Virus record (IMG/VR): IMGVR_UViG_3300026549_001031
From: a virus
Taxonomy: Duplodnaviria; Heunggongvirae; Uroviricota; Caudoviricetes
Reading direction: 5' to 3' (one strand)
Length of the DNA stretch: 64,000 bases
Part shown: in pieces, positions 14,869 through 64,000 of the stretch
How positions within the stretch are numbered: the first letter of the stretch is position 1
Layout: each line of letters opens with the position of its first letter
Program-made: the position numbers and the translations under genes
The notes under the pieces: model-generated
Databases searched by the model: none
What the model saw: the letters and a program-made list of their open reading frames with translations, nothing else
What the model was told of the DNA's origin: nothing

Positions 14869-14879
14869 GGTGCAGAATA

Positions 14880-18414: not shown

Positions 18415-18888
18415 ATGAAAAGGACAGTTAAGAATAAGTTAGTTACAAAGATGGTTAGTACAATTGCATGCGCAGTTGTACTTTGCACAAGTTTAGTAGG
18501 GTGTGGACTTGAGGATGTATTTACAAGCAGTACAGAGAACACTGAAAGTACAGAAGCTGACTCTGTTACACTTGGGGAGTTACTCAAAGTTGGACAGAAC
18601 GAAACAAAAGAGTTTACTGTAGGTGCAGAGTATAAAGTACTAGACGTTAATTATGCAGGTGCAGACCATATATTTCTGATACTCGCACTGGAGGATGTAA
18701 AAGATTATACAAGAACAGCATACGAAAGAGAACTTGGCTTTAGTAAAAATGACTATCTGTATGAGAGTATAATCAAGGGAGATACAATCAAGTTTACAGA
18801 GAAAAGTGTAGAGATCATTAAGAGTGCTGATGATACAGAGGATAAGGAAACAGATCAGAAAGCAGAAAAGGTAGAACAGCAGAAATGA
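18415..18888 (+). CDS. putative lipoprotein (157 aa)
   Basis: Signal peptide with lipobox LVGC (VVLCTSLVGCGLED); upstream GGACAGTTAAAATG initiation motif; stop overlaps next start (ATGA). Confidence 0.6.
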   Translation: MKRTVKNKLVTKMVSTIACAVVLCTSLVGCGLEDVFTSSTENTESTEADSVTLGELLKVGQNETKEFTVGAEYKVLDVNYAGADHIFLILALEDVKDYTRTAYERELGFSKNDYLYESIIKGDTIKFTEKSVEIIKSADDTEDKETDQKAEKVEQQK

Positions 18889-45041: not shown

Positions 45042-45366
45042 CATGTATTATAGATATGTTGGCAGAAGACTAAATGGAACAGACATTAGATTTAAGGGCA
45101 TATTTGAGATCTTTACACCTGACGAACGAAGAAAGTGGAGCAGTTGTTTGGCTACACCTAAATGGTACAGCGAGCATCCTGGTGTTGAGACTGAGGCGTG
45201 GTTTACTCAACATGGATATGATAAGTGGCATGGCAAAATGGATGCAATAATCAATGATTTCTTAGATGCATACGGTAGAAATAATTATGAGGTACATTTA
45301 TTAAGGGTAGAGACATTAAATAACATCGTGTCTAAAGGAAAGACACAGTGTATTGTGAGAGTGTAA
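45031..45366 (+). CDS. hypothetical protein (111 aa; start 45031 or 45043)
   Basis: ORF overlapping end of upstream gene. Confidence 0.45.
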   Translation: MVNNMYYRYVGRRLNGTDIRFKGIFEIFTPDERRKWSSCLATPKWYSEHPGVETEAWFTQHGYDKWHGKMDAIINDFLDAYGRNNYEVHLLRVETLNNIVSKGKTQCIVRV

Positions 45367-45413
45367 CAGTTAGAAATAGAAGTAGGACAGTTAAAATATC
45401 TGGGGGAGATACA

Positions 45414-46043
45414 TTGAACAGAAAAGTGTTTAACATTAACAACTTAAAGAATTGCATACTTATACAAAGATGGGATGGAGATATAGGCATTATTGACCTT
45501 GAGTATACCATTGGTACAACTGAAGTGATAGACTATGATTTCTATAACATACCTGATGGAAGTAATATAGAGTTCATTGTTGGAGCAGGCAGGACATATG
45601 AGAAAATGAGTGAGGACAGAGCAATGGTATTTAATAAACATAAGCTCAAAGAGGATGATCAATCAATATTTCCGTTATACAATAAGGAATATGACTATGT
45701 TGACATTCATAAAAACAATGATCTTATCTTTTGGGATGGCAAGAACTTAACAGATGTAATGTTAGACGTATGTAATAAAAAGATATCTTATATGTGTACT
45801 AAGGTATGCAGTTTACTGCTAGAGAATAACAGTGGTTATAGGACAGTTGATAGGTTTGATACACTTCTGTCTAGGAGAGATACAGTAGAGTTAATAGATA
45901 AGACAGGATTCATTACAGATCTGACTAGTGAGTATGATATAGCAAACATGCTTAAAGGAGAAGAAATCATGTATTTTAAGCATGGTCCTTTCAACATTGT
46001 GTATCAACCTCGAAAAATAAGTGTAAGGAACATTCCATTTTAA
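45414..46043 (+). CDS. hypothetical protein, paralog family G (TTG start after GGGGGAG RBS)
   Basis: N-terminus (M)NRKVFNINNLKNCILIQRWDGDIGIIDLEY aligns with (M)RKEKFDIDNLRDCIVIHRYDGSIDIIDI of next gene; track start 45348 is GTG inside previous gene. Confidence 0.5.
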   Translation: MNRKVFNINNLKNCILIQRWDGDIGIIDLEYTIGTTEVIDYDFYNIPDGSNIEFIVGAGRTYEKMSEDRAMVFNKHKLKEDDQSIFPLYNKEYDYVDIHKNNDLIFWDGKNLTDVMLDVCNKKISYMCTKVCSLLLENNSGYRTVDRFDTLLSRRDTVELIDKTGFITDLTSEYDIANMLKGEEIMYFKHGPFNIVYQPRKISVRNIPF

Positions 46044-46064: not shown

Positions 46065-46733
46065 GTGAGAAAAGAGAAGTTTGACATTGACAATTTAAGA
46101 GATTGTATAGTAATACATAGATATGATGGGAGCATTGACATTATTGATATAAGACAGGCAAGAGAGAAAGATAGAGTTATTGAGTCTGAATACTATGTCA
46201 TACCTGAAGAAAGCAATATTGGGTTTATTACAGGCATCAATAGAAAATATGTTACAGATAATAGAGAAGCATTAGGGCTTGCACTTGTTTATAATAACAG
46301 TAAGTTTAAGAGATCTAGCATGAATGTTATTGGTTATACAAGATGCTCATTACATTATAGGGACAATAGTGCATATGATAAGTTTATTATATACAATGGG
46401 GATAGCTTAAGAGATGCAGTCAAGGTTAAAATAGACAACACAGATCTTGAGTTTGAGGTAGTTGGTGATTTTGCTATTTGTAAAATGGCTATTTTACCAA
46501 GTATAGCTATTGTACCAAGTATTGATATAAGATATACATATGTTAATAATTTTAGTACACTAGTTTCTAAAGATGATACAATTGAATTGATAGATTCAGC
46601 AGGTAATACTAGAGATTTAACATATGAATGTGATGTACATGCAATGACAAGCGAAGAAGATAAGTACAGAATTATGCTTAATGAACTTGCTATATACATT
46701 GAGAATGAGAATCTATGCATTTCGAGACTATAG
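46065..46733 (+). CDS. hypothetical protein (222 aa), paralog family G (GTG start)
   Basis: Tandem paralog of 45414 gene. Confidence 0.55.
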   Translation: MRKEKFDIDNLRDCIVIHRYDGSIDIIDIRQAREKDRVIESEYYVIPEESNIGFITGINRKYVTDNREALGLALVYNNSKFKRSSMNVIGYTRCSLHYRDNSAYDKFIIYNGDSLRDAVKVKIDNTDLEFEVVGDFAICKMAILPSIAIVPSIDIRYTYVNNFSTLVSKDDTIELIDSAGNTRDLTYECDVHAMTSEEDKYRIMLNELAIYIENENLCISRL

Positions 46734-49096: not shown

Positions 49097-50248
49097 ATGT
49101 TAGATAGACAGGGTTTAGGTTTGGAGTTAGACAATACTAGTTTATATTTGATCTTTGTAAGAGAGGGCAAATATGCAGTAGTTAATTTAGACAAGACCAT
49201 TGAAAATAGTAAAATTGACATAGCAGGTGATTATTGGACAGTTAATGAGGATGTTAACTTGCATCAACTTGAATATACTGAGGCATTGATTAAAATAACA
49301 ATTAGCAGCTATTTTCAAGACAGACTTGGATGTGCAGTCTCTTTTAATTGTAATACAGGCGAGGAAATAACTGGAGTTACACTTGATAATTTATTTGAGA
49401 GAGTTACAATTAAATCTAGGACAGATACAGATGTGTATTTGGTCAGAGGAAATAAAGAGATATACATTAGTGAACAAGTTGGTTTGGCTTCAGCGCTTGG
49501 ATGTGACGGTACAGAAGTTGGTTTGGACAACCTGATAGATAATGTCAGGGTTTCAGGGTTTATTAGTCCTATGACTAATTCAGATGGGTTTATAGAGGGT
49601 TGTCTTAGCATTAGAGTTGAGATATATAGACAACCATTGGAGGAGGATAACAATACAGAAGTTATTATACTGCGTGACAAAAGAAAAATGGACAGATATG
49701 AGGTAGAGGGGGAGGAGAGCAGCATTGGAGAAAAGAGCATTGGAGAAAAGTATGAGTTGGAAGAGGCATTTAGAATTAACTTAGGCAGACCTCTTAATTT
49801 AAGAGCTGGTACATGTGGATTTCATATAGACAATTCAAAGAATATTAAAATTACAGTGAGTAATAATCATACACCTTTGACAGATAGAGGTAGAAAAAGC
49901 TTCTATAGGGGAAGTTGTAGGATACCTGTAATAACAAGTGAACTCACTAGAGTAGGAGTGTTCATTGGAAGTGACACAGTAAATCTATGGATCAACATAG
50001 ATGACTATGGAAGAGTGCATAGGGCTGATTTATTTTGGACAGATAAGAATGAGGATGTGCAAGTAATAGTTGAGAATAAGGCACTTGGACAAAAAATGGT
50101 TTATCAAATGTTTGATAATGATACATATGAAAATGAACCTGATACAGGGATTGGATGTTGGGTTGTGCATGAGACAATTTCAAAAGATCCTGATGAAATT
50201 TCAGAGTTCATAAGGTTAAATAGTAAAGAAAACGGGTTGAATACATAG
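49097..50248 (+). CDS. hypothetical protein (383 aa), paralog family D
   Basis: Shares LYLIF N-terminal block and GxxxGxxGTEVGLDNLI block with 53441, 54597, 55633 genes. Confidence 0.55.
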   Translation: MLDRQGLGLELDNTSLYLIFVREGKYAVVNLDKTIENSKIDIAGDYWTVNEDVNLHQLEYTEALIKITISSYFQDRLGCAVSFNCNTGEEITGVTLDNLFERVTIKSRTDTDVYLVRGNKEIYISEQVGLASALGCDGTEVGLDNLIDNVRVSGFISPMTNSDGFIEGCLSIRVEIYRQPLEEDNNTEVIILRDKRKMDRYEVEGEESSIGEKSIGEKYELEEAFRINLGRPLNLRAGTCGFHIDNSKNIKITVSNNHTPLTDRGRKSFYRGSCRIPVITSELTRVGVFIGSDTVNLWINIDDYGRVHRADLFWTDKNEDVQVIVENKALGQKMVYQMFDNDTYENEPDTGIGCWVVHETISKDPDEISEFIRLNSKENGLNT

Positions 50249-50299
50249 ACAATGTAGAAAGACATGAAGTAAATAAGAGTTAGGGCAGGGGTTATAAGA

Positions 50300-51499
50300 A
50301 TGGGATCTGGAGTATATCATATCGAGACAATAAAAGTAAAGAGTAGGGCAACAGGAAATGTGGTTGTGCAGTTTAGATTGGATGCTAAATACAAGAAAAC
50401 AATAATAAAGCCATCAGAGATGAAACCACTTATAGGGGCTATGTTGATCAGTAGTAATACAGGGTACAGTTATGATTTTGAGAAATTGGCAAGAAATTAT
50501 AAGTATGTGCCTACTAGAAGTATAAGGGCATACATACCATATGTACATACAGCAGTATACCATACAAGCATTACAAAGAAAGAGATTGATACACCTGATT
50601 TGACAGAGTGTCATGTGATTAGTTTATTGCATGATTTAGGTACAGAGTATTTAGCAGCAGTTGCATTTAATTCACTTGATAACAGGAAATATGAGTACAT
50701 ATACACTGGAGAGAAAGAGATAAACTTATCAGAATTATATGAGAAGCATAGACAAGTTGGAGTAAAAGAGATTGATAGCACTTCAACAAGAAACATATAC
50801 ATGGCAAATGAGATTTTGTTTATGACTTCAAAAAGAATAGACTTCTATGAAATGGGTAAGCTTTATGATGCATCTAGTACATGTAAAATAGATTTGGTTC
50901 CTACAGTATTGAAAATTGAGGAATCAAAAAGAAAAAAGAGAGGAAAGATTAGCATTGAGGAACAGGCAGAGGAAAATAAGAAAGAATACAATGAAAGATT
51001 AGAAAGGGCTAAAAGAAAAGGAAATATATACATTGAAATTAACAATGACATTGACAAAATTTTGATTGATACAGGGGCTGAAAAGATGGAGGACATTGTG
51101 ACAATTCTTCAGAGCAGTAGGTTTAATTACAGATTAACTCATGGAGAATTGGAAACAAATGTTAGCAACATGTCTTTTAGGTTGGAGTACAGAGATCCTA
51201 ATAAAGAGGCTCTAAAAAGTTCAAGAATTGTGGAAGGTAGTGTTGTTGTTGATACCTTAATTCCTAGGGACAGGTTTATTTGTGACATTTATTTTTTACA
51301 TAATCAGTGTAGCATATTCAGGTTCAAAAAGAATGATATATATGTAAAAGTATGTGGAGGGCATGAAGACTATGACCTTAATGAATTAGTTGGCATAGCT
51401 GATATGACAGGCGGCAATAAATTTCTTTATGAAGACTGTGCTATTGGGATAAACAACTTTGTGTTTGTAGGGATTGGCAATGGAATGAAAGAGATTTGA
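50300..51499 (+). CDS. hypothetical protein (399 aa)
   Basis: ORF with GGGCAGGGG RBS-like sequence. Confidence 0.55.
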   Translation: MGSGVYHIETIKVKSRATGNVVVQFRLDAKYKKTIIKPSEMKPLIGAMLISSNTGYSYDFEKLARNYKYVPTRSIRAYIPYVHTAVYHTSITKKEIDTPDLTECHVISLLHDLGTEYLAAVAFNSLDNRKYEYIYTGEKEINLSELYEKHRQVGVKEIDSTSTRNIYMANEILFMTSKRIDFYEMGKLYDASSTCKIDLVPTVLKIEESKRKKRGKISIEEQAEENKKEYNERLERAKRKGNIYIEINNDIDKILIDTGAEKMEDIVTILQSSRFNYRLTHGELETNVSNMSFRLEYRDPNKEALKSSRIVEGSVVVDTLIPRDRFICDIYFLHNQCSIFRFKKNDIYVKVCGGHEDYDLNELVGIADMTGGNKFLYEDCAIGINNFVFVGIGNGMKEI

Positions 51500-51570
51500 C
51501 AAGGAAAAAGAAAAGATGAGCAAAGGATTACAGGTAACGGACAATGGCAGAATAATGGGATGTACATTGG

Positions 51571-52071
51571 ATGAATTTGAGAAAGTCATTAAAAAAAGAA
51601 AGAGTTACGAGCGATGGTTTATTGCTGAACATCAATAATGAGTTTAGGGCATATATTCCTTTGAACTTGGGGCTTGTACATGGAAAGTTAAACATGTATA
51701 CAACAGAGATTGGACATAAATCTAGTATGGGGTTTAATTATATTGAAGATGATGGGCATATAAAAGTAAATTTGGTCTATAGGACATGGCTAATTGGCAT
51801 GTGTGAGTATAAGCAAGGAGTAAAAAATAAATGGGTATTACATAAGATAATTTTAATACCAGGTAGTATAATATCAGAGTTTGATGCTGATTACATAACA
51901 ATTGATGAAAAGATCAGTTTATCTGATGTGTTGGATGAGTCAAGGATGTTTGGGATATTAACATGGTACAATGTCAAAGAGATTAATGGCATGTGGTTAA
52001 GTTTGGATGGAGGTAATATGTTTTTAAGTGATCATATGTACAATCCTAAGGACTTAAAGGTTTATGGATAG
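51571..52071 (+). CDS. hypothetical protein (166 aa), paralog family E; start uncertain (overlaps 40-codon ORF 51516-51638 with A7 tract)
   Basis: C-terminal block MFGILTWYNVKEINGMWLSLDGG aligns with NMLGISSWNNIEEIDNLWLSISAG and NMLGIKVWHNMNKIDNMFVSIVNKG. Confidence 0.5.
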   Translation: MNLRKSLKKERVTSDGLLLNINNEFRAYIPLNLGLVHGKLNMYTTEIGHKSSMGFNYIEDDGHIKVNLVYRTWLIGMCEYKQGVKNKWVLHKIILIPGSIISEFDADYITIDEKISLSDVLDESRMFGILTWYNVKEINGMWLSLDGGNMFLSDHMYNPKDLKVYG

Positions 52072-52244
52072 AACATAAGAAAATAGGAAAATGGACAAGG
52101 AGTAATGGGAAGTAGATCATGGGAAGTGATTTAGATAGCATAGTCTTAAGAGGGGATCAAGCAGCTAAGACAGTTATAAAAGACCTTGATACAATTAAAG
52201 AATGAAATAAACATGTTGAAATTGAAAGCAAACATAAGGGTTGC

Positions 52245-52712
52245 TTGATATTCACACTGAAGGATTGTAAGATACTTTTCTCATTATGTGTTTATTACAG
52301 TGATAATACACCAGAGACACATTTATACGTGTATAAGCATAATGGAAAAGCAAAGGTGTCCACAGAAACAGGAAAGATGCTTGGGAGAATAATAGACACA
52401 GCAGTAATGTTTAATGATGAGACAGCTATACACTTGAGATTTGAGCTTAAGGATGACAATTGGTCAGCTACAGATATTGAGTGAGATGCTGGGGTATTGA
52501 GTGGTACTACAGAACTTACACATGTACATGGGGATGTGCATAAAAACTTATTAGAAAACATTGATATGATCAATATGCTTGGGATATCAAGTTGGAACAA
52601 CATAGAGGAAATAGATAACTTGTGGTTGAGTATAAGTGCAGGTAAATTTGTTTATTTAACAAGTAAGCAAGCAGTACCTATCAATTATAAGGAATATACA
52701 GTGACAGATTGA
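52245..52712 (+). pseudogene. paralog family E gene with in-frame TGA at 52482-52484 (nonsense mutation or readthrough/recoding)
   Basis: Track ORFs 52245-52484 and 52497-52712 are in the same frame separated only by TGA; fused length 151 aa matches paralogs (152-166 aa); TGA aligns with Cys (TGT/TGC) of 52932 paralog. Confidence 0.5.
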
Positions 52713-52931
52713 GGGTTAGACATAACAAATGGGAGCATGACATTGGATAGTATAACATATGAATTGATAAAGCAGAGATTAAGAAAAGCAATGAGTAAAT
52801 CAACATCTATGAAAGATAATAAATGCATGGGTAATGGTAAAGATACAGCAGTCTATCAGCTCTGCAAAATTGATAACCTGGTTGATTTGAATAAATAAAT
52901 AGAAATTGAGAAGCAACATGACGGTTGTTTA

Positions 52932-53420
52932 TTGATGCAATGGGAAGAACACACAATGATGCTTTCATTTTGGATACCTGACTGTAATGATAGGAAAGAC
53001 ATCATTACAATTTATATGGTGGACAATGTACAAATCTGGGACCTGGAAGATCCAGTCATAGAAGTTCAAAAGACAAACTGGGATTCAATTAGTGTTGGTA
53101 TATATTATTATGGATATGACATTGTACTTGTAGACTTTATATGGGATACAGATAAAAAGAAATGGACAGTGGCAAATTGTGATTGTGGCATGGTAGAGGT
53201 ATCTAGACATACAGAAGTTACATATATAACAAAGAATGGACAGTGGAAATTATCAGAAAACATTGATTTAGCTAATATGCTTGGTATTAAGGTTTGGCAT
53301 AATATGAATAAGATAGATAATATGTTTGTTAGCATAGTAAATAAAGGAATATCATTAAGTATTCAGAAGAAAGCACCTGATGAATTGAGAGTATTTGAAA
53401 CAGACGGAGAAAAGCAGTAA
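52932..53420 (+). CDS. hypothetical protein (162 aa), paralog family E
   Basis: Conserved 5' leader GAAATTGAGAAGCAACATGACGGTTG shared with 52245 gene leader. Confidence 0.5.
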   Translation: MMQWEEHTMMLSFWIPDCNDRKDIITIYMVDNVQIWDLEDPVIEVQKTNWDSISVGIYYYGYDIVLVDFIWDTDKKKWTVANCDCGMVEVSRHTEVTYITKNGQWKLSENIDLANMLGIKVWHNMNKIDNMFVSIVNKGISLSIQKKAPDELRVFETDGEKQ

Positions 53421-53440
53421 AAGAAAGGACAGGCAGTAGA

Positions 53441-54547
53441 ATGAAAGTTTCAGACTTTGGAATTTATGGAATTGACAATGGAGATGCATACTTATTATTT
53501 AAGAGAATAGGATCAAACAATCTTGACTGGTCGTGGTTTAATTTAGATGATACAGTTAAAAATGAAGTGAATGGAGCACAGGTTTATGGTAAACAGCTTA
53601 GACTACAGGAGGATGCTATTGTAGATACCTTATATGGTAGTAGGTGTGGTAAGCTGGATCGTAACTTTACACTTGGCATAACTGAATATAGTGAATGTCA
53701 GTTCAATAAAAAAACACATACAGCAAATGAAATTGGTGCATATAATATAACAATTAGGAGCATTGATGGAAATATAGACTCTGTTAAAATGAAATACAAT
53801 ATACAAACATATGAGTCATATCTAGTAAAGGGAGATACAGTAATAGATATTAACAAGTGTGCAGGAGTTAGACAACTTGCAGGGTTTTGTGGAGAGTTAG
53901 GGCTCGAGAGTTTAATACAGAACATACAAATTATATTGGATACAGCTGAAAGAAAAGATGGTTACATTGGAATTTCAATATATAAAGCAGTATTTGATTG
54001 GGATAGCAGTACATATTTACAAATGGTAGCACACAGTATGGGAAAACAAACAGTGTTTGACCTGGGATACACAAATGAGGGCATAAGTAGTAATAAATAT
54101 GACTTGTATTCTTTGAGGCACATGAATGTAGATTTGGATAGACCTGGAGTTAAGAGCTTTTCTTACATTAGATGTAGTAGCTTAACTACTAAAGAAGAGG
54201 ATAGTATTATGGAATATGACATGTGGTTACCTGATAGATTGTATGTGATGGCATTGTTAGACGGAGAAAAACGCTTAAGTAAAATGAATGTCATTGGTAA
54301 AGATACTCGTACAGATAAAATTGAATTTATACTTAGGAAAACAGAGGATGGCAACACAGTAGATAAATCAGTGTTACTTATTGATAATGAAGGATGCGTT
54401 AAAGATGGTAAGAATAAGTTTTCAAAAGAAGTACTTGGGCATTGGGTATTAGAATATAGTCCTAGTGTAAAGGGAAGATGGGCAATAGGTATAAATCATT
54501 TGAGCAATACTGGAAAGATGCCTTCATTTGCATTTCTTGGTATATAA
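53441..54547 (+). CDS. hypothetical protein (368 aa), paralog family D
   Basis: AAGGACAGGCAGTAGA RBS; GVRQLAGFCGELGLESLIQN block. Confidence 0.55.
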   Translation: MKVSDFGIYGIDNGDAYLLFKRIGSNNLDWSWFNLDDTVKNEVNGAQVYGKQLRLQEDAIVDTLYGSRCGKLDRNFTLGITEYSECQFNKKTHTANEIGAYNITIRSIDGNIDSVKMKYNIQTYESYLVKGDTVIDINKCAGVRQLAGFCGELGLESLIQNIQIILDTAERKDGYIGISIYKAVFDWDSSTYLQMVAHSMGKQTVFDLGYTNEGISSNKYDLYSLRHMNVDLDRPGVKSFSYIRCSSLTTKEEDSIMEYDMWLPDRLYVMALLDGEKRLSKMNVIGKDTRTDKIEFILRKTEDGNTVDKSVLLIDNEGCVKDGKNKFSKEVLGHWVLEYSPSVKGRWAIGINHLSNTGKMPSFAFLGI

Positions 54548-54596
54548 AAGTCAGACAGAAAAAAATTGTAGTCAAAAGTTGGACAGGTGGTTAAAA

Positions 54597-55628
54597 ATGA
54601 ATGGCTGTAAATTTGATAAAAGATACAGTAAAGGCTTATGGTTAATCTTTAGAGAAAAGAGTGGTAGGACTTGGCATAAAATAAAGTTTGGCAAGGGGTT
54701 TAATGCAAAAGACAGTGGACTCAATAAATATGCATATGGTAAAAGGGAAAGGTCTTATTTTCCTAGGTCATTAGCATTACTTGGCAACAGGTTTGACATA
54801 TACGACTTCTTGTTACATGAGGGTACTTATGAATGGAATAGTTCTACATTAACAATTAGAACAATAGATAGTGTAATAGACAATGTAGTTTTTGAATTTG
54901 ACAAAGACTTATTTGAGGCATACTTAATAAATGAGGGGTACATCATTGATGTTTATAAGGAGATAGGAGTAACAAATGCATGTGGCAGTAATGGTACAGA
55001 AATAGGTTTGAACAAGGTGGTACCCGGAGTTGAAATTGAGTACTCATATAAATGGAAAGGGATGATCCGTCTAAGAATAATAAAAGAGCATATCAAGTAT
55101 GACTATAATGAGGAACTTGAATGCAAGGTTACAGTTAATGGTACAGTGGAGTTTGACTACAATATCAGTAGTCCACTATTTGATGGACCTAAGGGGTTGG
55201 ATATGAGGAACAATATTAAGGACAAGCATCTGGATATAAGAGACTACTATCACTATAGAATTAGGAGTGGATACAGGCTAGGAAAAACAATAGCATTTGA
55301 GAGTTACTTATCACTCTACGAAAATCTGGGTGTATACACACTTGAAATTGAGAATGACATGAAACTATGTGCTATAGAAATTAACCCTACAGTTAGATGT
55401 TTAGCTGGCAGTGATGCAACTATAGAGTTGACACGATTGAAAAATGGGAAAGAGATTGATAAGCTAGAGTTATTATACACTAAAGATACAGATGATAACA
55501 TATATAAATGGTTTGGACAGTGGATGATATGGAAAGAGGGCAGTATACTTAATATAAGACATAGTTCATGTCTTGGAGAGTTTGTAGTTTGCAGACTTGG
55601 TAGTGAAGAAGATGGCATAGTGATATAG
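54597..55628 (+). CDS. hypothetical protein (about 343 aa), paralog family D
   Basis: ATG 54597 after GGACAGGTGG gives N-terminus MNGCKFDKRYSKGLWLIF aligning with paralog N-termini; track start 54528 overlaps upstream gene. Confidence 0.55.
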   Translation: MNGCKFDKRYSKGLWLIFREKSGRTWHKIKFGKGFNAKDSGLNKYAYGKRERSYFPRSLALLGNRFDIYDFLLHEGTYEWNSSTLTIRTIDSVIDNVVFEFDKDLFEAYLINEGYIIDVYKEIGVTNACGSNGTEIGLNKVVPGVEIEYSYKWKGMIRLRIIKEHIKYDYNEELECKVTVNGTVEFDYNISSPLFDGPKGLDMRNNIKDKHLDIRDYYHYRIRSGYRLGKTIAFESYLSLYENLGVYTLEIENDMKLCAIEINPTVRCLAGSDATIELTRLKNGKEIDKLELLYTKDTDDNIYKWFGQWMIWKEGSILNIRHSSCLGEFVVCRLGSEEDGIVI

Positions 55629-55632
55629 GAGA

Positions 55633-56787
55633 ATGTACATGATATCTGAAAGAAAACACTTCTTAGAAAAAGTTAATATCATGGAGAAGTTAGGATTAGG
55701 CAAGGATGGTTTATATCTTGTACTTAGGGGAAAGTTAACAGGCTGTGTTGGAAAATGGTCCTGGTTAAGATTAGATACATGTTTAAGTAATAATGACATT
55801 GACAAGTTGAATGGAGGTGCATGGCATGCAAGTGTAGAGGCAACGGAACAAAGAAGAGAGCATACAGAACAAACACGTAATACATATAAAGGAAGAAGTA
55901 TGTTATATGAACCTTGGTGTGTTGAGCATTTCAGTTTTGCAGAATCACTTGATAATTATGGAAGTCACTTAACAGTAAGAGCATTTGATAATAAAGTTGA
56001 CAAAGTTAAATTTGAGTATGTGTCTGATAATTATGATATGTACATTGTGAGTGGGAATAGTGGCAGTGTAATTGACATAAATAAAGAGGCGGAAGCATTA
56101 TACTTAAGCGGTTTTGACAATGGAGAATTAGGACTTGATAGTTTAATTCCTGGTATCAGCATAGAGTTTGTAAGAGTTCATAGATACAAAGTTCATGGGC
56201 ATAAAAAGTATATTATTTATATTAAGTTCATAAGTTTTAAGGAAGATAGACATGAAAGATTGGGTATTAACTTTTTGTTTGATGGCACAAGCAGGTTGAG
56301 AATTAAGAGTGTTGATGACATTAAATCTCAAGACTCCTTAAATTGGTATATTGATGATGGAATTGAGGATAGAGGTTATACTTATAGAGCTGGCAGACCT
56401 GGTGCACCTTTTAATAGACATTGTTATAAATTAGCTGATATACATAAGAGTTATAATAGATATGGTTTAATTGTAGGTCATCAGACATCTATAGATTTTG
56501 TAGTAGAAAATGATTATAGCACTAAGCTCATTGATATTTCCTTGTGTCCTAAGATAATTGATGTTGGGAAGGATATAGACATTATAATCACAAGGGAATA
56601 CAACGGAGAAGTGATTGATACCATTAAAATAAATAACAGTCACCCTGAAGTATTAAGGGATAAGCAGAGCAGTTTTATATTTGGCAATTGGATTTTTATA
56701 AGTGACGTCTCTGATAGTGTGGTAGGTTTATGTAGATATAAATTGATGCATAAACAAGGAACAGCAGAATTTATACATGAAATATGA
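55633..56787 (+). CDS. hypothetical protein (384 aa), paralog family D (alternative start ATG 55680)
   Basis: TAGGAG RBS before 55633; EKLGLGKDGLYLVLRGK aligns with RQGLGLELDNTSLYLIFVREGK of 49097 gene. Confidence 0.55.
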   Translation: MYMISERKHFLEKVNIMEKLGLGKDGLYLVLRGKLTGCVGKWSWLRLDTCLSNNDIDKLNGGAWHASVEATEQRREHTEQTRNTYKGRSMLYEPWCVEHFSFAESLDNYGSHLTVRAFDNKVDKVKFEYVSDNYDMYIVSGNSGSVIDINKEAEALYLSGFDNGELGLDSLIPGISIEFVRVHRYKVHGHKKYIIYIKFISFKEDRHERLGINFLFDGTSRLRIKSVDDIKSQDSLNWYIDDGIEDRGYTYRAGRPGAPFNRHCYKLADIHKSYNRYGLIVGHQTSIDFVVENDYSTKLIDISLCPKIIDVGKDIDIIITREYNGEVIDTIKINNSHPEVLRDKQSSFIFGNWIFISDVSDSVVGLCRYKLMHKQGTAEFIHEI

Positions 56788-56839
56788 AGCATAAAAGAAA
56801 TACTTTGGAAACAGTCGAGAAACAGTTGGGGAATGAAGT

Positions 56840-57319
56840 ATGGACATAAATAAAAAATTGTACAACTTTGATAAAAGTAAACTAATCAATGAAGATTTGT
56901 ATCTAATCATTGAAAAAGAGGATAAAGACACTGGAGAATCAAGATGGGCATGGATAGATATAGATAAACCATGTAATGATGAAAGAAGTAAAATTGTGGT
57001 TTATGGGGATGCATGGGAGGATAGTGGAATTACATGTAATGCATATACAATATGGCAACAGCTTTATATAGGAGAATTTGAGGACTATTTTGATACTCTT
57101 ATAACAGTAGATAAAGAGACAGGGTTCTGTATTAGTATAAGGATTGTACATAATGAAAATAAAGTTGATCAGGTAGGTATAAAAATCAGCACTAAAAAGT
57201 CAGATGGCTTAGCAATTTATTTATATCATTTGGGAAAGATAATAAACATGACAGAAGAAACTAAGATATGCTATCTTAGTGGGGGGAGTTTAGCAATGAA
57301 ATTGGGTTTGGAGACTTAA
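56840..57319 (+). CDS. hypothetical protein (159 aa)
   Basis: ORF with GTTGGGGAATGAAGT RBS-like sequence. Confidence 0.5.
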   Translation: MDINKKLYNFDKSKLINEDLYLIIEKEDKDTGESRWAWIDIDKPCNDERSKIVVYGDAWEDSGITCNAYTIWQQLYIGEFEDYFDTLITVDKETGFCISIRIVHNENKVDQVGIKISTKKSDGLAIYLYHLGKIINMTEETKICYLSGGSLAMKLGLET

Positions 57320-57357
57320 TAAATAATGTAAGAGTTAGCTTTGCAATAAGTGGTAAG

Positions 57358-57909
57358 GTGACAGAGTTTAGAATCAACAGGGTAATAAATAACTGGGACT
57401 ATAGACACAAGACATGGTTCAGTGTAGAGGCAAGTAATGATACAGCATTTGAGATAGATGCAAAAGCAGCAATAGATGTTAAAACTAGCATAGGAAATAA
57501 AAAGAAACTTGACATTGTAGATTATATTGGTAGACCTAATTATTCATATTATAGGAGCACTTTTAGAGATCCTAGCATTTACAAAGAACCAACAGAACTT
57601 CGTCTAAAGTTGGGTAAGAAAGTGTTTTTGAAAATGGTGCACGATGAATATGGAGGTATAATCAGTATGGTGGTTAAAGCACATCACCTTAAACCTGGAG
57701 ACTTCAAAATGAAAATAACTTGCATTGATGAGACAGAAACTACAAAGGAAAATGAGGGCGGAAAGAGAGAGATATATGAAATAGACAATGTAAATAAGAA
57801 AGATACAGAAGTGGCAGAGGTTGGCAATTGGTTAATTAGCTATGACATTCAAAAAGAAGTAGTCAACATACATGTTTTTAATAAAGACTACACTTGCATG
57901 ACAGTGTGA
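57358..57909 (+). CDS. hypothetical protein (183 aa; GTG start, weakly supported)
   Basis: ORF; start codon choice uncertain. Confidence 0.4.
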   Translation: MTEFRINRVINNWDYRHKTWFSVEASNDTAFEIDAKAAIDVKTSIGNKKKLDIVDYIGRPNYSYYRSTFRDPSIYKEPTELRLKLGKKVFLKMVHDEYGGIISMVVKAHHLKPGDFKMKITCIDETETTKENEGGKREIYEIDNVNKKDTEVAEVGNWLISYDIQKEVVNIHVFNKDYTCMTV

Positions 57910-57959
57910 TATAATAGATAAAGATAAAAAGTAGTTAGAAGGATAAGGGCATATAAATT

Positions 57960-58418
57960 ATGAAGAAAGCAGTATTAAAAATTGAAAAAGATGGAGTAAA
58001 AATATTTGAGGCATCCTTATCAAATGGTATAGGATTGATTTATCAGGACAGTGAAGTTGCTATTTATGATCAGAGACTAAATATTGAGTACTATACTCAT
58101 TTGATCAGTTACAAGGATAAATTAGTTGCAATGATTATCAGTAGTGACAATGATGTTGCAGAAGTAAACCTGTTCATTAAAGATGGATCATTGAAAGCTT
58201 GGTTCACTACAGATGCTGGGGATGGAGATATCATTGATGCTGGTTTAGTGCAGAATATGTTAGGAACTAAGTTCAAGGGATTTGGAGAATTATATGATAT
58301 AATTACACAGGAGTATGAGGATATGACATTGATAACAATGTATACTAACATGTCACCTGATGGTAAATCATATAAACCCAATACAAAGCATTTGGAGTGG
58401 GCATACACACAGGCATAG
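57960..58418 (+). CDS. hypothetical protein (152 aa), paralog family F
   Basis: KIFEASLSNGIGLIY block shared with 58437 gene. Confidence 0.55.
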   Translation: MKKAVLKIEKDGVKIFEASLSNGIGLIYQDSEVAIYDQRLNIEYYTHLISYKDKLVAMIISSDNDVAEVNLFIKDGSLKAWFTTDAGDGDIIDAGLVQNMLGTKFKGFGELYDIITQEYEDMTLITMYTNMSPDGKSYKPNTKHLEWAYTQA

Positions 58419-58436
58419 TGAAAGAGGTAGCATAGA

Positions 58437-58895
58437 ATGATAAGTAAGTTACTTTTGCAATTAACATATGACAAAGAAAAGATATTTGAGGCATCTGTAT
58501 CAAGTGGGCTTGGACTAATTTATACAGGAGAGGACATTGAATATAAGGAATTTACATTTGGTCCTGATTACATAGCAGTTGTAGTTTATAGAAAAGATAA
58601 AGTGATTGCACTGTTTGAATTAGATTGTAACATAGTGAAATCAATTCATACATTCAGCAAGGATAATAATTTAGATGCATATGTCATTACAAAAAATTGT
58701 AAGGAAAGTGTGGATGCTGCAGTTACACTAGGTGTAATGCTTGAGCAAAATGTATGCACAGTGGCTAATAAGTTCAATGTACATTGTAAAGTATTGGATG
58801 GCATTCAAGTCACAAGTATGTACATTGACTTACAAGATTATATCAGAGATAAAAATACAGCACTACGTTATAGTTGGGTATTAAATAAAGTTTAA
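58437..58895 (+). CDS. hypothetical protein (152 aa), paralog family F
   Basis: Tandem paralog (KIFEASVSSGLGLIY). Confidence 0.55.
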   Translation: MISKLLLQLTYDKEKIFEASVSSGLGLIYTGEDIEYKEFTFGPDYIAVVVYRKDKVIALFELDCNIVKSIHTFSKDNNLDAYVITKNCKESVDAAVTLGVMLEQNVCTVANKFNVHCKVLDGIQVTSMYIDLQDYIRDKNTALRYSWVLNKV

Positions 58896-58906
58896 CCGCA
58901 TGGGTA

Positions 58907-58935
58907 TTGATTTTTATGGAAATAAGTGGTATAAT
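58907..58935 (+). promoter_or_regulatory. sigma-A promoter TTGATT-N17-TGgTATAAT (near-identical copy at 63333-63361)
   Basis: TTGATTTTTATGGAAATAAGTGGTATAAT; followed by GTTGGAGGTAAG RBS and ATG 58967. Confidence 0.6.
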
Positions 58936-58966
58936 TTAATTATTAAGAGTTGGAGGTAAGAGATAG

Positions 58967-59845
58967 ATGAAAGCATCAAATAAAATTTTAGGAGCAGTAT
59001 TAGCATTAGCTATGACAGTAGGAACAGTAAGTGGAGCACCTGTTGCAGGTGATGTACTTGGAGCAGAAACAGTGCAGGCAGCTACAAGAACAAAGAGTGT
59101 TACAATTAGTAACGTTAAGAATGGAAAAGCTACCTTATATACAGGGCAGAGTTTATCATTTAAGACGAACTATAAAGAAAATCAGTTGAAAGTGTCTACA
59201 TCAGATAAAAGCGTGGTCAGCGTAAAAGGTATTAAGATCACAGGAGTAAATAAAGGAACTGCAAAGATTACAGTGGCTGTTAAAAGCAATACAAAAGTAA
59301 AAAAGACTATTACAGTAAAAGTTGTGGATAGGTATATTATCAGAAAGAGTTGTGAAGGTGGTAATGCAGTTACAGAAAAGTATGACAGAAAGACAAAGAA
59401 GAGCACATATACAGTTGCTATGACAGGTACAGATGAGTTAAATAAAGCAGATATCAGTGTAAAGTTTAAGTTTACATCTAAGGCTACAAATCTGACAGGT
59501 ACAAGATATGCAGGAGAATTAAATAATGGTGAAGGTTGTGGTCTTAGACTATACAACATGACAAAAGATGACTCATACAAACAGATTATTGATTTTAACA
59601 AGAAATCAGATAAAGAGCTTTACAAATATTATGAGCTGACAAAGGCAGAAATCAAGCAGACAAAGTTTACACGTAATAATACAGATGCAGGGTATGTGAT
59701 GGCATCTGTTGTTCCACATGGCAAAAACGGACTTATTAAGGAATGTTTAATCAAAGACAAGGAAACAGGAACATTATATAAATTAGAGTATCGGGGTAGC
59801 GAAGATCCGTATGCAGTATATAAGAGTGTAAAAGTCATAAAGTAA
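58967..59845 (+). CDS. secreted protein with signal peptide and bacterial Ig-like (Big_2) domain
   Basis: Signal peptide MKASNKILGAVLALAMTVGTVSGAPVAG; Big_2-like SVTISNVKNGKATLYTGQSLSF...KVSTSDKSVVSVKGIKITGVNKGTAKITVAVK. Confidence 0.7.
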   Translation: MKASNKILGAVLALAMTVGTVSGAPVAGDVLGAETVQAATRTKSVTISNVKNGKATLYTGQSLSFKTNYKENQLKVSTSDKSVVSVKGIKITGVNKGTAKITVAVKSNTKVKKTITVKVVDRYIIRKSCEGGNAVTEKYDRKTKKSTYTVAMTGTDELNKADISVKFKFTSKATNLTGTRYAGELNNGEGCGLRLYNMTKDDSYKQIIDFNKKSDKELYKYYELTKAEIKQTKFTRNNTDAGYVMASVVPHGKNGLIKECLIKDKETGTLYKLEYRGSEDPYAVYKSVKVIK

Positions 59846-59875
59846 CAAGCATAAATAACTAAAGATTTAGTTGTT

Positions 59876-59915
59876 AACAGAGGACTCAGGTGTTTGGACA
59901 CTTGGGTCCTTTTTG
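59876..59915 (+). terminator. candidate Rho-independent terminator (GGACTCAGGTGT...ACACTTGGGTCC stem + TTTTTGTG)
   Basis: 12-bp stem with G-U/mismatch positions followed by T-run, 30 nt after stop of 58967 gene. Confidence 0.5.
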
Positions 59916-59991
59916 TGTACATAAATTTCTACATGAATTTAATTAAAATTGAAATTTTATATTTTTAATAATTTATAAGAGGTAATAGAAG

Positions 59992-61736
59992 ATGAGCATG
60001 TTATTAAGAGGACAAGACAGTATTGATGAAGTTTTGAGGCTATCTAAAGATCATGATAGCATTGAAAAACTTAATGAGACACAAGAAAGTGAAGATAACA
60101 TTGGGTACACAAAAGGAAAAGAACTGGAAAATTCTGGAAATGAGGAGTCAGAGTTAACAGACAATAAAGAAAAGGCAAAAGGCAGTGAGTCAGCTGAAAA
60201 TAACATTGAAGAAGAAAACAAACAGGAGGATAAGAGTAAATCATTAGGGGGTTTAATTAAACGCGGAGCAGAAGCATTAGCAACACTAGGATTAATAGCA
60301 GTCACAGAAAAGCAGATAGAAGAGACACATCAATTGAGAGTCTTTGCAACTTGTACATGTAAAGGTTCTTGCGGTAATAATTGTAAAGGTTGCAGTGGTA
60401 GTTGTAAAGATAGTTGTGTTTCAGGTTGTACAGGAAGTTGCAAAGGTGACTGTAATACAACATGTCATGGTGGCTGTAAAAATGGGTGTCATACAAGTTG
60501 TAATGGCGGTTGTAAGGGTGGTTGTAATAAGTTATGTAAAGGCGGATGTAAGACGTCATGTAAAGATGGATGTGCAAATGCATGTGGTGGGTGCAAAGGT
60601 GGTTGTGCACATGACTGTGCTAATTGTAAAGATAGTTGTAAGGGTGGTTGTATACATGGTTGTGGTGGTGATTGCAAAGGTTCATGCAAGGAAGGATGTA
60701 AAGGTTCATGCAAAGGCAGTTGCAAAGGTGAGTGTAAAGATGGCTGCAAGGGAGATTGTAAGGGCAGTTGCAATACTGGATGCAAGGGAGATTGTAAGGG
60801 CAATTGCAAAGGAAGTTGCAACACCGGCTGTGATAGTTCATGCAAGGGAGGTTGCAAGACAGGTTGTAACACTTCATGTACAGGCAGTTGTAGTGGCGGT
60901 TGTAATACTTCATGTTCAGGAGGATGTGATGGCTATTGTGGAGGTTCTTGCAGTAGTTCCTGTGGTGGAGACTGTTCAGGAAGTTGTGGATCCTGTGACT
61001 CAGGATGCTACAGTTCTTGCAAGACAGGCTGTTATCAAGGATGCACAGGAAGTTGTGGACAGGGATGTGCAAGTGGATGTGATAGTACATGCACAGGATC
61101 CTGTGACACTAGTTGTAATACTTCTTGCAATACAAGTTGTACTGGATCATGTGGTAGTGGGTGTGAAAGCACTTGTGAAGGATCATGTAAAGGACAATGT
61201 GACACAGATTGTAATGGATGTACAGGAACTTGTAATGGTAGTGCAGCAAGTACTTGTGGTGAGAGCTGTGAAGGTGGCTGTAAGACAACATGTAATACAA
61301 GTTGCACGGGGGCATGCACAACTAGTTGCAGTGGAGAAAGTAGTGGATCAGACACAGGTTGTAATGGATCATGTAAGGCAGAATGTACAGGCTGTACAAC
61401 TACTTGTGGAGCAGATTGCTCAAGTGGATGCAACACAAGTTGTTCAAGTAGTTGCAGTAACGGATGTAAAGGCAAATGCACAGATTCCTGTACAGGCAGT
61501 TGCATAGGACAATGTTAGGTACTTGTATAGGCACATGTAATACAGGATGTATGACAGGATGTAAGACAGGTTGTAAAGAGGCATGTGCAGGAACTTGTTT
61601 AGGTGGATGCACCGGTTCATGTAAGATGACAGCCCAAAGTACAACACCTGGTGGAGGAAATGGTGGGACAGTTGTGCCTGGTGAACAACCTGGAAGCACT
61701 AACAGAGATAGAATACATACAGTAATAGTAAATTAA
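59992..61736 (+). CDS. giant cysteine-rich C-x3-C tandem-repeat protein (about 580 aa, more than 100 Cys); reading frame needs -1 shift near 61513-61518
   Basis: Frame 1 ORF 59992-61518 (acidic N-terminal 100 aa then ...CKGSCGNNCKGCSGSCKDSCVSGCTGSCKGDC... for about 400 aa); frame 0 continues CLGTCIGTCNTGCMTGCKTGCKEACAGTCLGGCTGSCK to TAA 61736 keeping the 4-residue Cys period. Confidence 0.6.
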
Positions 61737-61845
61737 ACAAAGTGTTTATAAGTAGGACATGTCATATAAAAGGCATGTCCTATTTTTATGCATAGAAGTA
61801 TAAAAAGAGAATTTTTATTTTTAATTAAAGTTGGGAGGAATAAGC

Positions 61846-63185
61846 ATGTCTGATGTAATTGAGCAGTTATATGGAGATAGGGTACCTGGTACAAATATAG
61901 TGTTTACACCTGAAAATGTTGTAGAGGAAATGATGAGTAGACTTCCTGAAGATTTCTGGACACCTGACAAAAGAATATTGGACATATGCAGCAAGTCAGG
62001 TAGATTTCTGAAATATGCATTTAACAAATTATATAAATCACCTTATTTAAGTGAAATGACACCTAATGAGAGAAAGAGGCATATAATTGAAAATCAGTTG
62101 TTTGGACTGTCAAATGACTTTACATGTCTAGTTTTGGCAGAAACAACACTATATGGTTTTGCACAGTATGGAAAAAGAAACATTAAGCTTGTATCAAATT
62201 TAGAGGCAGTAGTAAAAAGAGTAGATAGACAGAGTGAACTTGGAAAGGAGACAGGTTTTGATATGCATTTCGACTTAGTAATTGGAAATCCCCCTTATAA
62301 TAAGGGCATGGATATTGATTTCATAGATCTTGGCTATGAATTAAGTAAACAGTATACAGTGATGATAGTGCCTGCAAAGTGGCAAACAGCAGATGCAAAT
62401 CAGAGGATCAGTAGTAAAATGAGTTATGGACAGTTCAGAGAGAAGCTAGTCCCTCATATGAAATATGTATGTTTTTACCCTGACTGCTTAGACGTTTTTG
62501 GTATTCAAGAGCAGTCTGGGGTTAGCTGGTTTATTTTAGATAAGAGCAATACATATGAGGATAGTTGCACAGTAGAAAATAAGTGTAACTTACAGAAATA
62601 TGCTAATGGCATTGAGAAAAGAGATATAACTCACAGACAAACCTTATGGAACATAGGAAATAAAATAATTGAGCACTTAAATAGGGGGGGCAGTACAAAT
62701 CATATGAGTTTAGTCCTATAGAAAATAGAAAAGCATACACACTTAACATGAATACACAAATGGCACTTGGTACATGTTCATCTGGTGCATGGGATTTCGA
62801 CATGGGTGGAATAAAGAAAAGCTTTATAGGCAAAGGTGGAGTATTGTTTAATCAGAGTGGACAATTGAATCTAACAAATAAAGCACGCTTATTAAGAGGG
62901 GTTGAAAAGTCAGGCATAAGTGCATCAAAAGATGTCTTTACTTCTGATGACATAGACGAGTGTAAATCTTTTTATACATGGATAAATAGCAAATTTACAA
63001 GGTTTTTTATACTGATCAACATTAGTTCATTAACAATTTTAAATGACAACACATTCAGGTTTGTCCCTTGTCCTCCTCATAATTCCTTTGATCACCTGTA
63101 TACAGATAAGGAGCTGTATGATTGGTTTAACCTACCAGAGGAATATAGGGAAGTCATAGATAGTATCCTACGAGACCGTAAATAA
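61846..63185 (+). CDS. full-length TaqI-like gamma-class N6-adenine DNA methyltransferase, split by poly-G(7) tract at 62684-62690 (intact with G8)
   Basis: ATG 61846 after GGGAGG; motif X/I VFTPENVVEEMMSRL...ILDICSKSGRFL (cf. M.TaqI VETPPEVVDFM...LEPACAHGPFL), motif IV LVIGNPPY, IVPAKWQTAD; second ORF 62748-63185 carries FRFVPCPP...YTDKELYDWF; inserting one G joins ...LNRGG to QYKSYEF..., restoring homology to paralog 44097 (GQYEKFRF). Confidence 0.75.
62684..62690 (+). repeat. G7 homopolymer inside methyltransferase coding sequence (candidate slipped-strand phase-variation switch)
   Basis: Only long G run in an AT-rich window; length 7 = OFF (stop 14 codons later), length 8 = ON. Confidence 0.6.
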
Positions 63186-63332
63186 TAAAATCACAAGCAG
63201 TATAATAAATTTAGTTTAACAGGTTGTAAAAAGAGAGATTCATAAATAAAAGAAGATACACAGATATGAAAATAAGATATAGCATTTGTATAAAATAATA
63301 TACATTGAGTTATAGGTCTGATATGCAATAGG

Positions 63333-63361
63333 TTGATTTTTATAGAAAAACATGGTATAAT
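63333..63361 (+). promoter_or_regulatory. sigma-A promoter TTGATT-N17-TGgTATAAT (copy of 58907 promoter)
   Basis: TTGATTTTTATAGAAAAACATGGTATAAT. Confidence 0.6.
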
Positions 63362-63402
63362 ATAAATAGAGATTGGAAGAGAGTTAAGCGAGGGACTCAA
63401 GA

Positions 63403-64000
63403 ATGAAAATAAGCAGTTCAGAATTAGCAAGAGTACAAGGACAATTATGTGTAAGTGCATATAGATATTTAAGAGGACTTAACAGAGAAATAAGTGATAG
63501 TTCTGAGGATAAACTCTTAGATGATTTCAATGATGCATATAGAGAATATGCTAAGGTCATGCATGATGAGTTTAATACATTAACTCCTGCAACAGCACCA
63601 GAGATTGCTAAAACAATCGTAGAAGAGTGTAATAGATGCAGCCTTGACTTGAGTGCATTCTGGGAAAGAAGGATAAGTGATGCAGTAAAAATCAAGTATG
63701 GAACATTCAAGAGAATAATACCTGACATAAGTAGATATGAGTTTACAGTGATTTGTGAAATTGATCATGTGGATTACGAGATCGGATGCATTGACATTTG
63801 GAGAAATAGTTGGAAATTCTATAACATTGCAGATGAGGCAATGGAAGTTGATGACACAATTACAGTAATGATAGACGGAAGGGCACATGATATTTGTAAA
63901 GTACACTTTTTAAGTGTAAAAGATCCTTTCTGTAAAAATAACATAGCAATGTATAACAGTTATTGCATAAAAGTTGAAAGTTACATTTACAATTATGATT
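63403..64000 (+). CDS. hypothetical protein, 3'-partial (runs off window end)
   Basis: ATG 63403 after promoter and GCGAGGGACTCAAGA; open for 199 codons to window end; not in track because no stop inside window. Confidence 0.45.
   Translation, partial: MKISSSELARVQGQLCVSAYRYLRGLNREISDSSEDKLLDDFNDAYREYAKVMHDEFNTLTPATAPEIAKTIVEECNRCSLDLSAFWERRISDAVKIKYGTFKRIIPDISRYEFTVICEIDHVDYEIGCIDIWRNSWKFYNIADEAMEVDDTITVMIDGRAHDICKVHFLSVKDPFCKNNIAMYNSYCIKVESYIYNYD

Follow-up and report, generated by a model that had tools for sequence, protein, structure and literature searches.

What kind of gene places a cysteine at nearly every fourth position more than a hundred times over, and why is it found split between two reading frames? 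The locus that raises this question lies at positions 59992-61736, on the plus strand, of IMG/VR virus record IMGVR_UViG_3300026549_001031; the whole 64,000-nucleotide (nt) stretch of this record is called the window below. The locus is one ancestral gene of about 581 codons, split by a single-base frame change. It is a real coding sequence under purifying selection, and its cysteine (Cys) pattern lies far beyond chance. It is reasonably probable that the gene is an orphan member of the Cys-Xaa-Xaa-Xaa (CXXX) repeat proteins broken by a plain deletion, and that its product is either cross-linked by a maturase borrowed from the host or acts unmodified as a thiol-rich binder.

Gene structure and the frame break

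The open reading frame (ORF) at 59992-61518 (+) encodes 508 residues with 97 Cys; residue 121 is the first Cys, and the 388 residues after the leader hold all of them. The 96 Cys-Cys spacings of this ORF are strikingly uniform (87 of four residues, six of three, and one each of two, eight and eleven). The -1 (= +2) frame is open from 61476 to 61736 and contributes nine more Cys, each at spacing 4. The restored protein has 581 residues and 106 Cys, with a spacing of exactly 4 in 96 of the 105 gaps. Spacer residues prefer the order K/N/T, G/T/S, S/G; proline is absent, and aromatic or hydrophobic residues are almost absent. These values bear out the preliminary description of this DNA, made from its letters alone, in most structural respects: more than 100 Cys at a four-residue period, an acidic leader (28 D/E vs 16 K/R over 120 aa), and a first ORF ending at 61516-61518 with the same periodicity going on to 61736. 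Its estimate of about 480 repeat residues was too high, as the array measures about 424 (residues 121-544).

Two registers cross the junction intact. The Cys period is unbroken, since TGT (61513-15) followed by TTA from 61515 reads C-LGT-C. The 12-nt units on the two sides have start-to-start spacings of 95 and 107, each 12n-1, corresponding to one lost base. The related contigs L016 and L017 read CA(A/G)TGTTT(A/G)GGTACTTG here, and the window reads CAATGTTAGGTACTTG, with one T of the T3 run absent. L016 reads through CIGQCLGTCIGTC without a change of frame and ends at the same C-terminus (...RIHTVIVN), confirming the earlier proposal of a single gene interrupted by a one-base change at CAATGTTAGG. 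The T3-to-T2 deletion at 61515 creates the TAG and removes the last nine repeats and a conserved 37-aa tail.

Is the break real, and is it an ordinary mutation? An independent Logan assembly (contig L001, run SRR7971122) matches the window with 0 mismatches over 4187 bases, and gene calls on it yield the same two products, of 508 and 74 aa. The break is thus reproducible, and the best reading of it is an ordinary 1-nt deletion; a base-calling error is less likely. A sequencing or assembly artefact hiding an intact 581-codon gene remains a rather unlikely alternative. In its favour, the difference sits in a short homopolymer (T3 vs T2), the neighbouring methylase is likewise broken at a homopolymer (G7 vs G8), and L001 may stem from the same reads as the window. 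However, the two assemblies agree base for base, T2/T3 runs are not error-prone for short reads, and relatives from other samples carry lesions of their own, so that broken alleles are the rule in this lineage. Nor is there support for a collapsed or chimeric assembly of the array, the outcome that the preliminary description had named as its refutation: the 12-nt units are mutually only 60-75% identical, too diverged for collapse, and the region therefore assembles uniquely. Programmed recoding, which that description had also entertained, is very improbable, whether as a -1 ribosomal frameshift at CAATGTTAGG or as termination-reinitiation at the overlapping ATG (61512) and TAG (61516). It is true that the downstream frame runs on for 74 codons without losing the Cys period, and that a gene caller has a 74-aa product start at the ATG that overlaps the stop. 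Against this, the break (GGA CAA TGT TAG) holds no X_XXY_YYZ heptamer, and tRNA-Cys on UGU is unable to re-pair in the -1 frame. The 71 nt after the break fold no better than shuffled sequence (z +0.19), AGGA stands just 2 nt before the ATG (a poor spacing), and the shift is not conserved, since one additional T keeps both L016 and L017 in frame. Stop-codon reassignment was considered and rejected: TAA, TAG and TGA are all used as stops in the window (32, 19 and 9 times), and reading through the TAG loses the Cys period.

Purifying selection on the array

Close relatives were recovered by a search with the leader only, and their contigs were then examined. The leader is 59-95% identical in P0129, P0131, P0148, P0179, P0238 and P0239. 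Two contigs allow comparison of the array itself: L016 is 91.6% identical to window positions 49953-64000, and L017 is 85% identical to 59910-61569. Against these, the ratio of non-synonymous to synonymous substitution rates (dN/dS) over the array is 0.17-0.23 at dS 0.38-0.63. All 106 Cys columns are conserved across the three lineages, irregular spacings included; TGT and TGC are exchanged in 18-28 Cys codons, and not one Cys is lost.

Long Val-rich, H/Y/L-rich and P/L/Q-rich ORFs overlap the Cys array. The same nucleotide alignment gives dN/dS of 1.0-1.7 in the two other plus-strand frames vs about 0.2 in the Cys frame. Because the ratio is at least 1.0 in both of those frames, the repeat itself accounts for the long overlapping ORFs, which are spurious, as had been supposed.

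Membership of the CXXX-repeat family

The preliminary description knew of nothing comparable in bacteria or phages, a view that does not survive database searches: the array belongs with a curated family (TIGR04114, TIGR04117, PF27846 and phrog_6085). As judged by sequence comparison, it is homologous to the arrays of TIGR04114, TIGR04117 and PF27846. The hidden Markov model (HMM) search for tandem repeats that the description had proposed likewise found parallels, in the form of sub-threshold matches to TIGR04114 and to TIGR04117 ('Cys-Xaa-Xaa-Xaa repeat radical SAM target protein'; 28-31 bits vs a cut-off of 50). Among the PHROGs, phrog_6085 (function unassigned) matches at E 2.6e-17. A protein search returned 245 matches (best E 1.8e-32), and nearly all of the 120 listed carry PF27846 (tSAM_targ_Cxxx_rpt). 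An exhaustive search gave 608 cluster representatives at E <= 1e-3 (best E 5.8e-58), including proteins of 1100-1800 residues; many have 60-120 Cys, and among the matches listed each has 29-120, mostly at spacing 4. Public records label the family members 'hypothetical protein'.

Other searches were empty. A Pfam scan with a release older than PF27846 gave no match for the Cys-array protein, and a sequence search of the PDB gave no related solved structure. Megablast and tblastn against annotated phages found no match, and P0074 and P0022, two large family members, likewise had no useful annotated phage match. Scans of IMG/VR, JGI metagenomes and GTDB genomes with the leader or the upstream gene yielded no relatives. 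Literature searches on PF27846, the TIGR families and the CXXX repeat found nothing relevant.

Within the family, two groups are instructive. The window protein resembles the curated targets (TIGR04114, TIGR04117, PF27846) in having Cys at every fourth residue, small polar spacers without proline, a pre-array segment that aligns with their signal h-region, and HMM scores comparable to those of genuine operon-linked targets. Large CXXX proteins of phage-like contigs that lack a twin-arginine translocation (Tat) signal (e.g. P0074, P0022, P0001, P0121) resemble it in their arrays of 60-120 Cys, in the lack of a maturase within 10 kb on either side, and in neighbours of unassigned function. They differ in two ways: large globular or adhesin-like domains flank the array, and E and Q are more frequent in the spacers. 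The window protein consists almost wholly of the array, apart from a short leader and tail, and its spacers are closer to those of the Tat-linked set than to those of these E/Q-rich giants. Twenty orthologues of about 900-1000 aa, on contigs of 100-290 kb, share about 85 invariant Cys columns at 50% mean column identity. P0127 (1163 aa) carries a strongly acidic variant array, C-E/Q-x-x (CETGCESTCEIGCQSTC...), at the C-terminal end of a large protein of unassigned function; the CXXX family tolerates very different spacer chemistry at constant period.

The cellular maturase operon and the orphan status of the window gene

Members of the Bacteroidales type (P0096, P0010) have a twin-arginine signal and a lipobox. 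After them comes a conserved operon whose products exceed the curated NCBIfam cut-offs by a wide margin (Table 1). In contigs L005-L010, this cellular system includes dedicated genes for TatA and TatC, which lie directly downstream of those for the maturases. In L010 the operon lies on a Bacteroidales integrative element, beside a tyrosine recombinase and a relaxase-like gene, with targets of 101 and 215 aa. L010 was also the sole IMG/VR match in a search for a viral CXXX maturase, a candidate rejected because this element carries the full cellular operon.

No counterpart of the five operon proteins, TatA and TatC included, was found by tblastn in the window or L001, and the CxxxCxxC motif occurs in no real ORF of the window. 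With about 7 kb added from relatives, roughly 70 kb in all was covered for maturase and Tat genes; the downstream genes in L001 and L016 have no Pfam matches. The Cys-array protein has no N-terminal signal peptide. Instead, a segment kept in all relatives (SLGGLIKRGAEALATLGLIAVTE) aligns with the Tat-signal h-region of maturase-linked CXXX targets (hhalign probability 94.6%), and TIGR04117 places aa 68-166 at model positions 8-97, in the same register as genuine Tat-signal targets. The twin arginine itself is replaced (SLGGLIKR vs SRREFFKK in the targets), and 82 residues precede the segment. With no maturase, accessory or Tat counterpart, no N-terminal signal and no twin arginine, the window gene is filed as an orphan variant, a substrate-type domain without its system. 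It differs further from the CXXX targets in the largely acidic character of this 82-residue extension, in its number of Cys (106 vs about 15-70 in the Tat-signal proteins), and in being carried on a mobile element.

Recurrent lesions and the poly-G tract

Each sampled lineage carries its own disabling lesion (Table 1). The gene is covered in full only in the window and L016; the other lineages are partial contigs with the lesion in the covered part. In the 14 kb shared with L016, the clear single-base frame-shifting differences within genes number three, two in the Cys gene and one in the neighbouring methylase; all other non-triplet indels lie between genes or at their ends. A short G tract in the leader differs in length among close relatives (G4, G5 or G6) and switches the reading frame. 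The lesions are all different and several sit at this tract; the Cys-array gene may be a dispensable accessory gene. The coexistence of long-term purifying selection with recent, independent knock-outs suggests either that the gene is an accessory one, of use under certain conditions, or that the G tract switches it on and off.

The tract resembles those of phase-variable genes in toggling the frame among close relatives, and the adjacent methylase shows G7 vs G8. Hypermutable homopolymer tracts usually have 7 or more bases; the leader G5 is shorter than these classic tracts, and the methylase tract is within the usual range. A general enrichment of G runs was examined and rejected (12 runs of at least 5 in the window vs about 32 expected). 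The Eco57I-like N6-adenine methylase gene (61846-63185) is split into ORFs of 291 and 145 aa at a G7 run (62684-62690); L016 has G8 and a single 446-aa protein, and one added G restores a single ORF in the window. By sequence, this downstream methylase looks phase-variable. A further G6 run (57281-57286) lies near the 3' end of ORF 56840-57319, where L016 has a 2-nt gap and a different local sequence.

Two further observations concern the leader. The G tract and the following TTTA form G_GGT_TTA (60250-60256), which in the window's in-frame allele has the right phase to be a canonical -1 slippery heptamer; a slip there would yield an 88-aa leader-only product (...SLGGFN*), and this could be coincidence. 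In L011-L014, the sequence past 60306 is unrelated DNA with a 128-aa ORF and a tyrosine-recombinase C-terminal motif (GNSPEVIRKHYF); this leader/array boundary may mark a mobile-element insertion or replacement.

Possible functions of the array

The cellular system offers a model for what the array might do. It directs attention first to radical-SAM cross-linking, which is missing from the roles put forward in the preliminary description (metal or redox buffering, a disulfide-laced solenoid fibre, an iron-sulfur or metal cluster scaffold). The TIGR04115 maturase would install intramolecular thioether cross-links in CXXX arrays, as we infer from its homology to PapB, SCIFF and QhpD-type enzymes and from gene context. 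Such links would make a rigid ladder, resistant to proteases, out of a flexible Gly/Ser/Lys-rich chain, and in cells cross-linking would be followed by Tat export of the folded product. PapB, the closest match of the cellular maturase outside its own family, installs repeated Cys-to-Asp S-C-beta thioethers in a repeated motif (PMC8172795). The likeness has limits. In freyrasin the motif is Cys-X3-Asp in a short peptide with six links (PMC8172795), whereas the residue at +4 after each Cys of the window protein is Cys, not the Asp of ranthipeptides and freyrasin. The window protein, at 581 aa, is also about ten times longer, and the window and L001 hold no cognate PapB-like gene. Given the lost twin arginine and the absence of maturase and Tat genes within about 70 kb, the window protein would either borrow a host CXXX maturase or act unmodified as a thiol-rich binder.

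Several points weigh against the reading of an orphan CXXX gene whose product is cross-linked or binds through its thiols. No maturase was seen in the roughly 70 kb, so that modification of the window protein is pure inference, and no literature describing the chemistry of the TIGR04115 (CXXX) system was found. The TIGR04114 (tSAM_targ_Cxxx) score of 19.7 bits falls just below the cut-off of 20; the L016 orthologue passes at 29.2, and this cut-off is not discriminating, since the genuine operon-linked targets P0002 and P0003 score only 15.9. No PF27846 match is on record for the window's own product, and much of the sequence similarity to the family is compositional, with a best identity of about 40-45%. 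The absence of an uninterrupted ORF in any of the seven sampled lineages could mean that the gene is being lost. Nor is 'phage' established, since no terminase, portal, capsid or other phage hallmark was found among the 56 window ORFs (PHROG, Pfam); the gut-Clostridia host is a guess from the IS200 transposase only.

Other readings of the gene draw on the same evidence. The likeliest of them, possible though doubtful, is a cytoplasmic metal or redox binder that never undergoes a radical S-adenosylmethionine (SAM) step, either a giant metallothionein or a copper store of the Csp type. Metallothioneins are small proteins with clustered CxC, CxxC or CC motifs, and the copper storage proteins Csp1 and Csp3 carry CxxxC on helices. 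Such a binder agrees with the lack of maturase and Tat genes within about 70 kb, with the missing signal peptide, and with a very high Cys content in a metallothionein-like composition (K/G/S/T/N/D spacers, no proline, almost nothing aromatic or hydrophobic). AlphaFold2 weakly favours helices, on which Cys at i and i+4 would line one face, as in Csp1. Yet the strict period, the spacer preferences and the pre-array segment all match the maturase-linked Tat set. The metallothionein motifs are nearly absent from this strictly periodic 581-aa protein, with spacing 2 once, spacing 3 six times and spacing 1 never. The helices have a predicted local distance difference test (pLDDT) score below 50; no confident helical bundle appears, there is no sequence relation to solved structures, and the protein is much larger than Csp1 or Csp3. 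AlphaFold2 in fact gave no usable model (pLDDT 41 without an alignment, 45 with a 56-sequence alignment), apart from a leader helix at aa 2-29 (pLDDT 57-76); the structure prediction that the preliminary description had called for thus returned no confident fold and no solenoid. A structural fibre or virion component laced with disulfides, in line with its beta-solenoid proposal, is unlikely. Related arrays do occur inside multidomain proteins of 900-1800 aa with adhesin-like Flg_new, Fn3_assoc and CHB_HEX_C domains on large phage-like contigs, and the roughly 85 Cys columns invariant across the 20 multidomain orthologues would suit such a role. However, the window protein has neither signal peptide nor adhesin domain, no structural genes were detected in the 64 kb, AlphaFold2 predicts no beta structure, and recurrent knock-outs argue against an essential virion part. 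A pseudogene in decay, without current function in the lineage, is about equally unlikely. The lack of any intact allele among the seven lineages points that way. Against it, every Cys has been kept at a dN/dS near 0.2, with dS reaching 0.63; each lesion is single and differs from the others, and is therefore recent; and the 73 codons past the window's lesion have stayed clean, with 5 synonymous and 3 non-synonymous differences from L016. Only slightly more credible is a contingency locus on a gut-Clostridia element, in which the poly-G tracts of the leader and the methylase would switch expression on and off and the 106-Cys cytoplasmic protein, over 500 residues long, would be cross-linked by the host maturase or serve as a decoy for it.

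Transcription unit and element context

The terminator at 59880-59914, which the preliminary description had noted ahead of the gene, is well supported and marks the start of an independent transcription unit (Table 1). A second terminator (61750-61787) lies just past the stop codon of the second ORF, which places the two ORFs in a single unit. The description had seen no recognisable promoter; this holds to the extent that the sigma-70-like match is weak and not above shuffles, but the gene does have a good Shine-Dalgarno sequence. The upstream protein (58967-59845) had been called a secreted Big_2 protein: its N-terminus resembles a signal peptide of the Gram-positive type, but neither Big_2 nor any other Pfam family matches at E <= 0.1. 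Synteny between its gene and the Cys gene holds in L011, L015 and L016.

Table 1. Features of the Cys-array locus, lesions in its relatives and products of the cellular CXXX operon (aa, amino acids; dG, folding free energy)
Feature	Position	Strand	Basis or detail
Intrinsic terminator of upstream gene	59880-59914	+	14-bp stem, U5 tail; dG -25 kcal/mol, z -4.9, 0/200 shuffles as good
Weak sigma-70-like promoter match	59943-59972	+	TTAAAA-18-AATAAT; consensus scan 9/12, not above shuffle expectation
Shine-Dalgarno sequence	59977-59982	+	AAGAGG, 9 nt before ATG; read directly from sequence
Cys-free N-terminal 120 residues	59992-60351	+	Conserved helix (aa 2-29), variable acidic linker, conserved pre-array segment; translation
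Conserved segment without twin arginine (aa 83-105)	60238-60306	+	SLGGLIKRGAEALATLGLIAVTE; kept in all relatives
G5 tract in leader	60247-60251	+	Interrupted (GGGAG) in L011-L014; nucleotide alignments
Cys array, part 1	60352-61515	+	97 Cys, C121 to TGT at 61513-15; ORF translation; dN/dS 0.17-0.22 vs L016 and L017
Lesion site TGT/TAG	61513-61518	+	1-nt deletion in T3 run, creates TAG stop; alignment with L016, L017
Cys array, part 2 (-1 frame)	61515-61622	+	9 further CxxxC units (LGTC...TGSC); contiguous with part 1 in L016
Cys-free conserved C-terminal tail and ancestral stop codon	61623-61736	+	KMTAQSTTPGGGNGGTVVPGEQPGSTNRDRIHTVIVN; near-identical in L016
Intrinsic terminator directly after ancestral stop	61750-61787	+	dG -24.2 kcal/mol, z -6.4
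Lesion, window and L001	61515		One T missing
Lesion, L016	60247-60251		G4 in place of G5 (-1)
Lesion, L017 and L098	60247-60251		G6 tract (+1)
Lesion, L015 (labelled pig gut)			GAA to TAA nonsense between leader and array
Lesion, L011-L014 (four samples)	60306		Homology lost, into foreign DNA with tyrosine-recombinase C-terminus
Lesion, L099			Break after codon 41
416-aa radical-SAM/SPASM enzyme, cellular operon			TIGR04115 rSAM_Cxxx_rpt, 636 bits; second-best match PapB, 190 bits
312-aa protein, cellular operon			TIGR04119 CXXX_matur, 219.6 bits
94-aa protein, cellular operon			TIGR04116 CXXX_rpt_assoc, 88 bits
TatA and TatC, cellular operon

The window has 34.7% GC, with all predicted genes on the plus strand, and comes from an uncharacterised mobile element, which may be a huge phage, a plasmid or something else. 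Of the 56 ORFs scanned, most lack a PHROG or Pfam match; the matches obtained comprise only a transposase of the IS200 type, Eco57I-like methylases, an SPFH/Band 7 protein, HD and DnaJ. Scans of the window for tRNAs and Rfam families found nothing. An IS200/IS605-type Y1 transposase (TnpA, 16103-16516) precedes ORFs at 16606-17343 and 17514-17873 that resemble a split TnpB-type gene. Because the closest relatives of TnpA are in metagenome-assembled genomes of gut Lachnospiraceae and Oscillospiraceae (76% identity), the host is probably a member of the gut Clostridia.

Paralogous genes are frequent. Four methylase-like paralogues, each with GNPPY, lie at 14865-15761, 18885-19781, 44097-45041 and 61846-63185, an unusual number of orphan methylases for 64 kb; two of them matched Pfam Eco57I in the bulk scan. 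Tandem paralogues occur at 57960-58418 and 58437-58895 (two 152-aa genes with similar N-termini) and at 45348-46043 and 46065-46733 (about 225 aa each). Five paralogous ORFs of 366-399 aa lie between 49097 and 56787, and L001 and L016 carry further paralogues of 459-486 aa past the window's end.

Significance

The repeat family itself was already known: it is catalogued, widespread and functionally unstudied. New here are the orphan status of the window gene, its degenerate, signal-like segment that follows an acidic extension, how strongly the 106 Cys are selected, and the fact that lesions recur. For annotation, the two split ORFs count as a single gene carrying a simple deletion, and the long ORFs that overlap them as repeat artefacts.

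For the biology of the family, the locus shows arrays of over 100 Cys held under strong purifying selection on mobile elements and repeatedly knocked out in nature. These arrays are detached from the radical-SAM/Tat operon that accompanies the Bacteroidales members, which makes the locus a clean test case for whether CXXX arrays need enzymatic cross-linking for function, and it supplies natural on/off alleles. If the contingency-locus reading were true, this would be the first mobile element to exploit host maturation of the type known from peptides made on ribosomes and modified after translation (RiPPs) for a protein-sized substrate.

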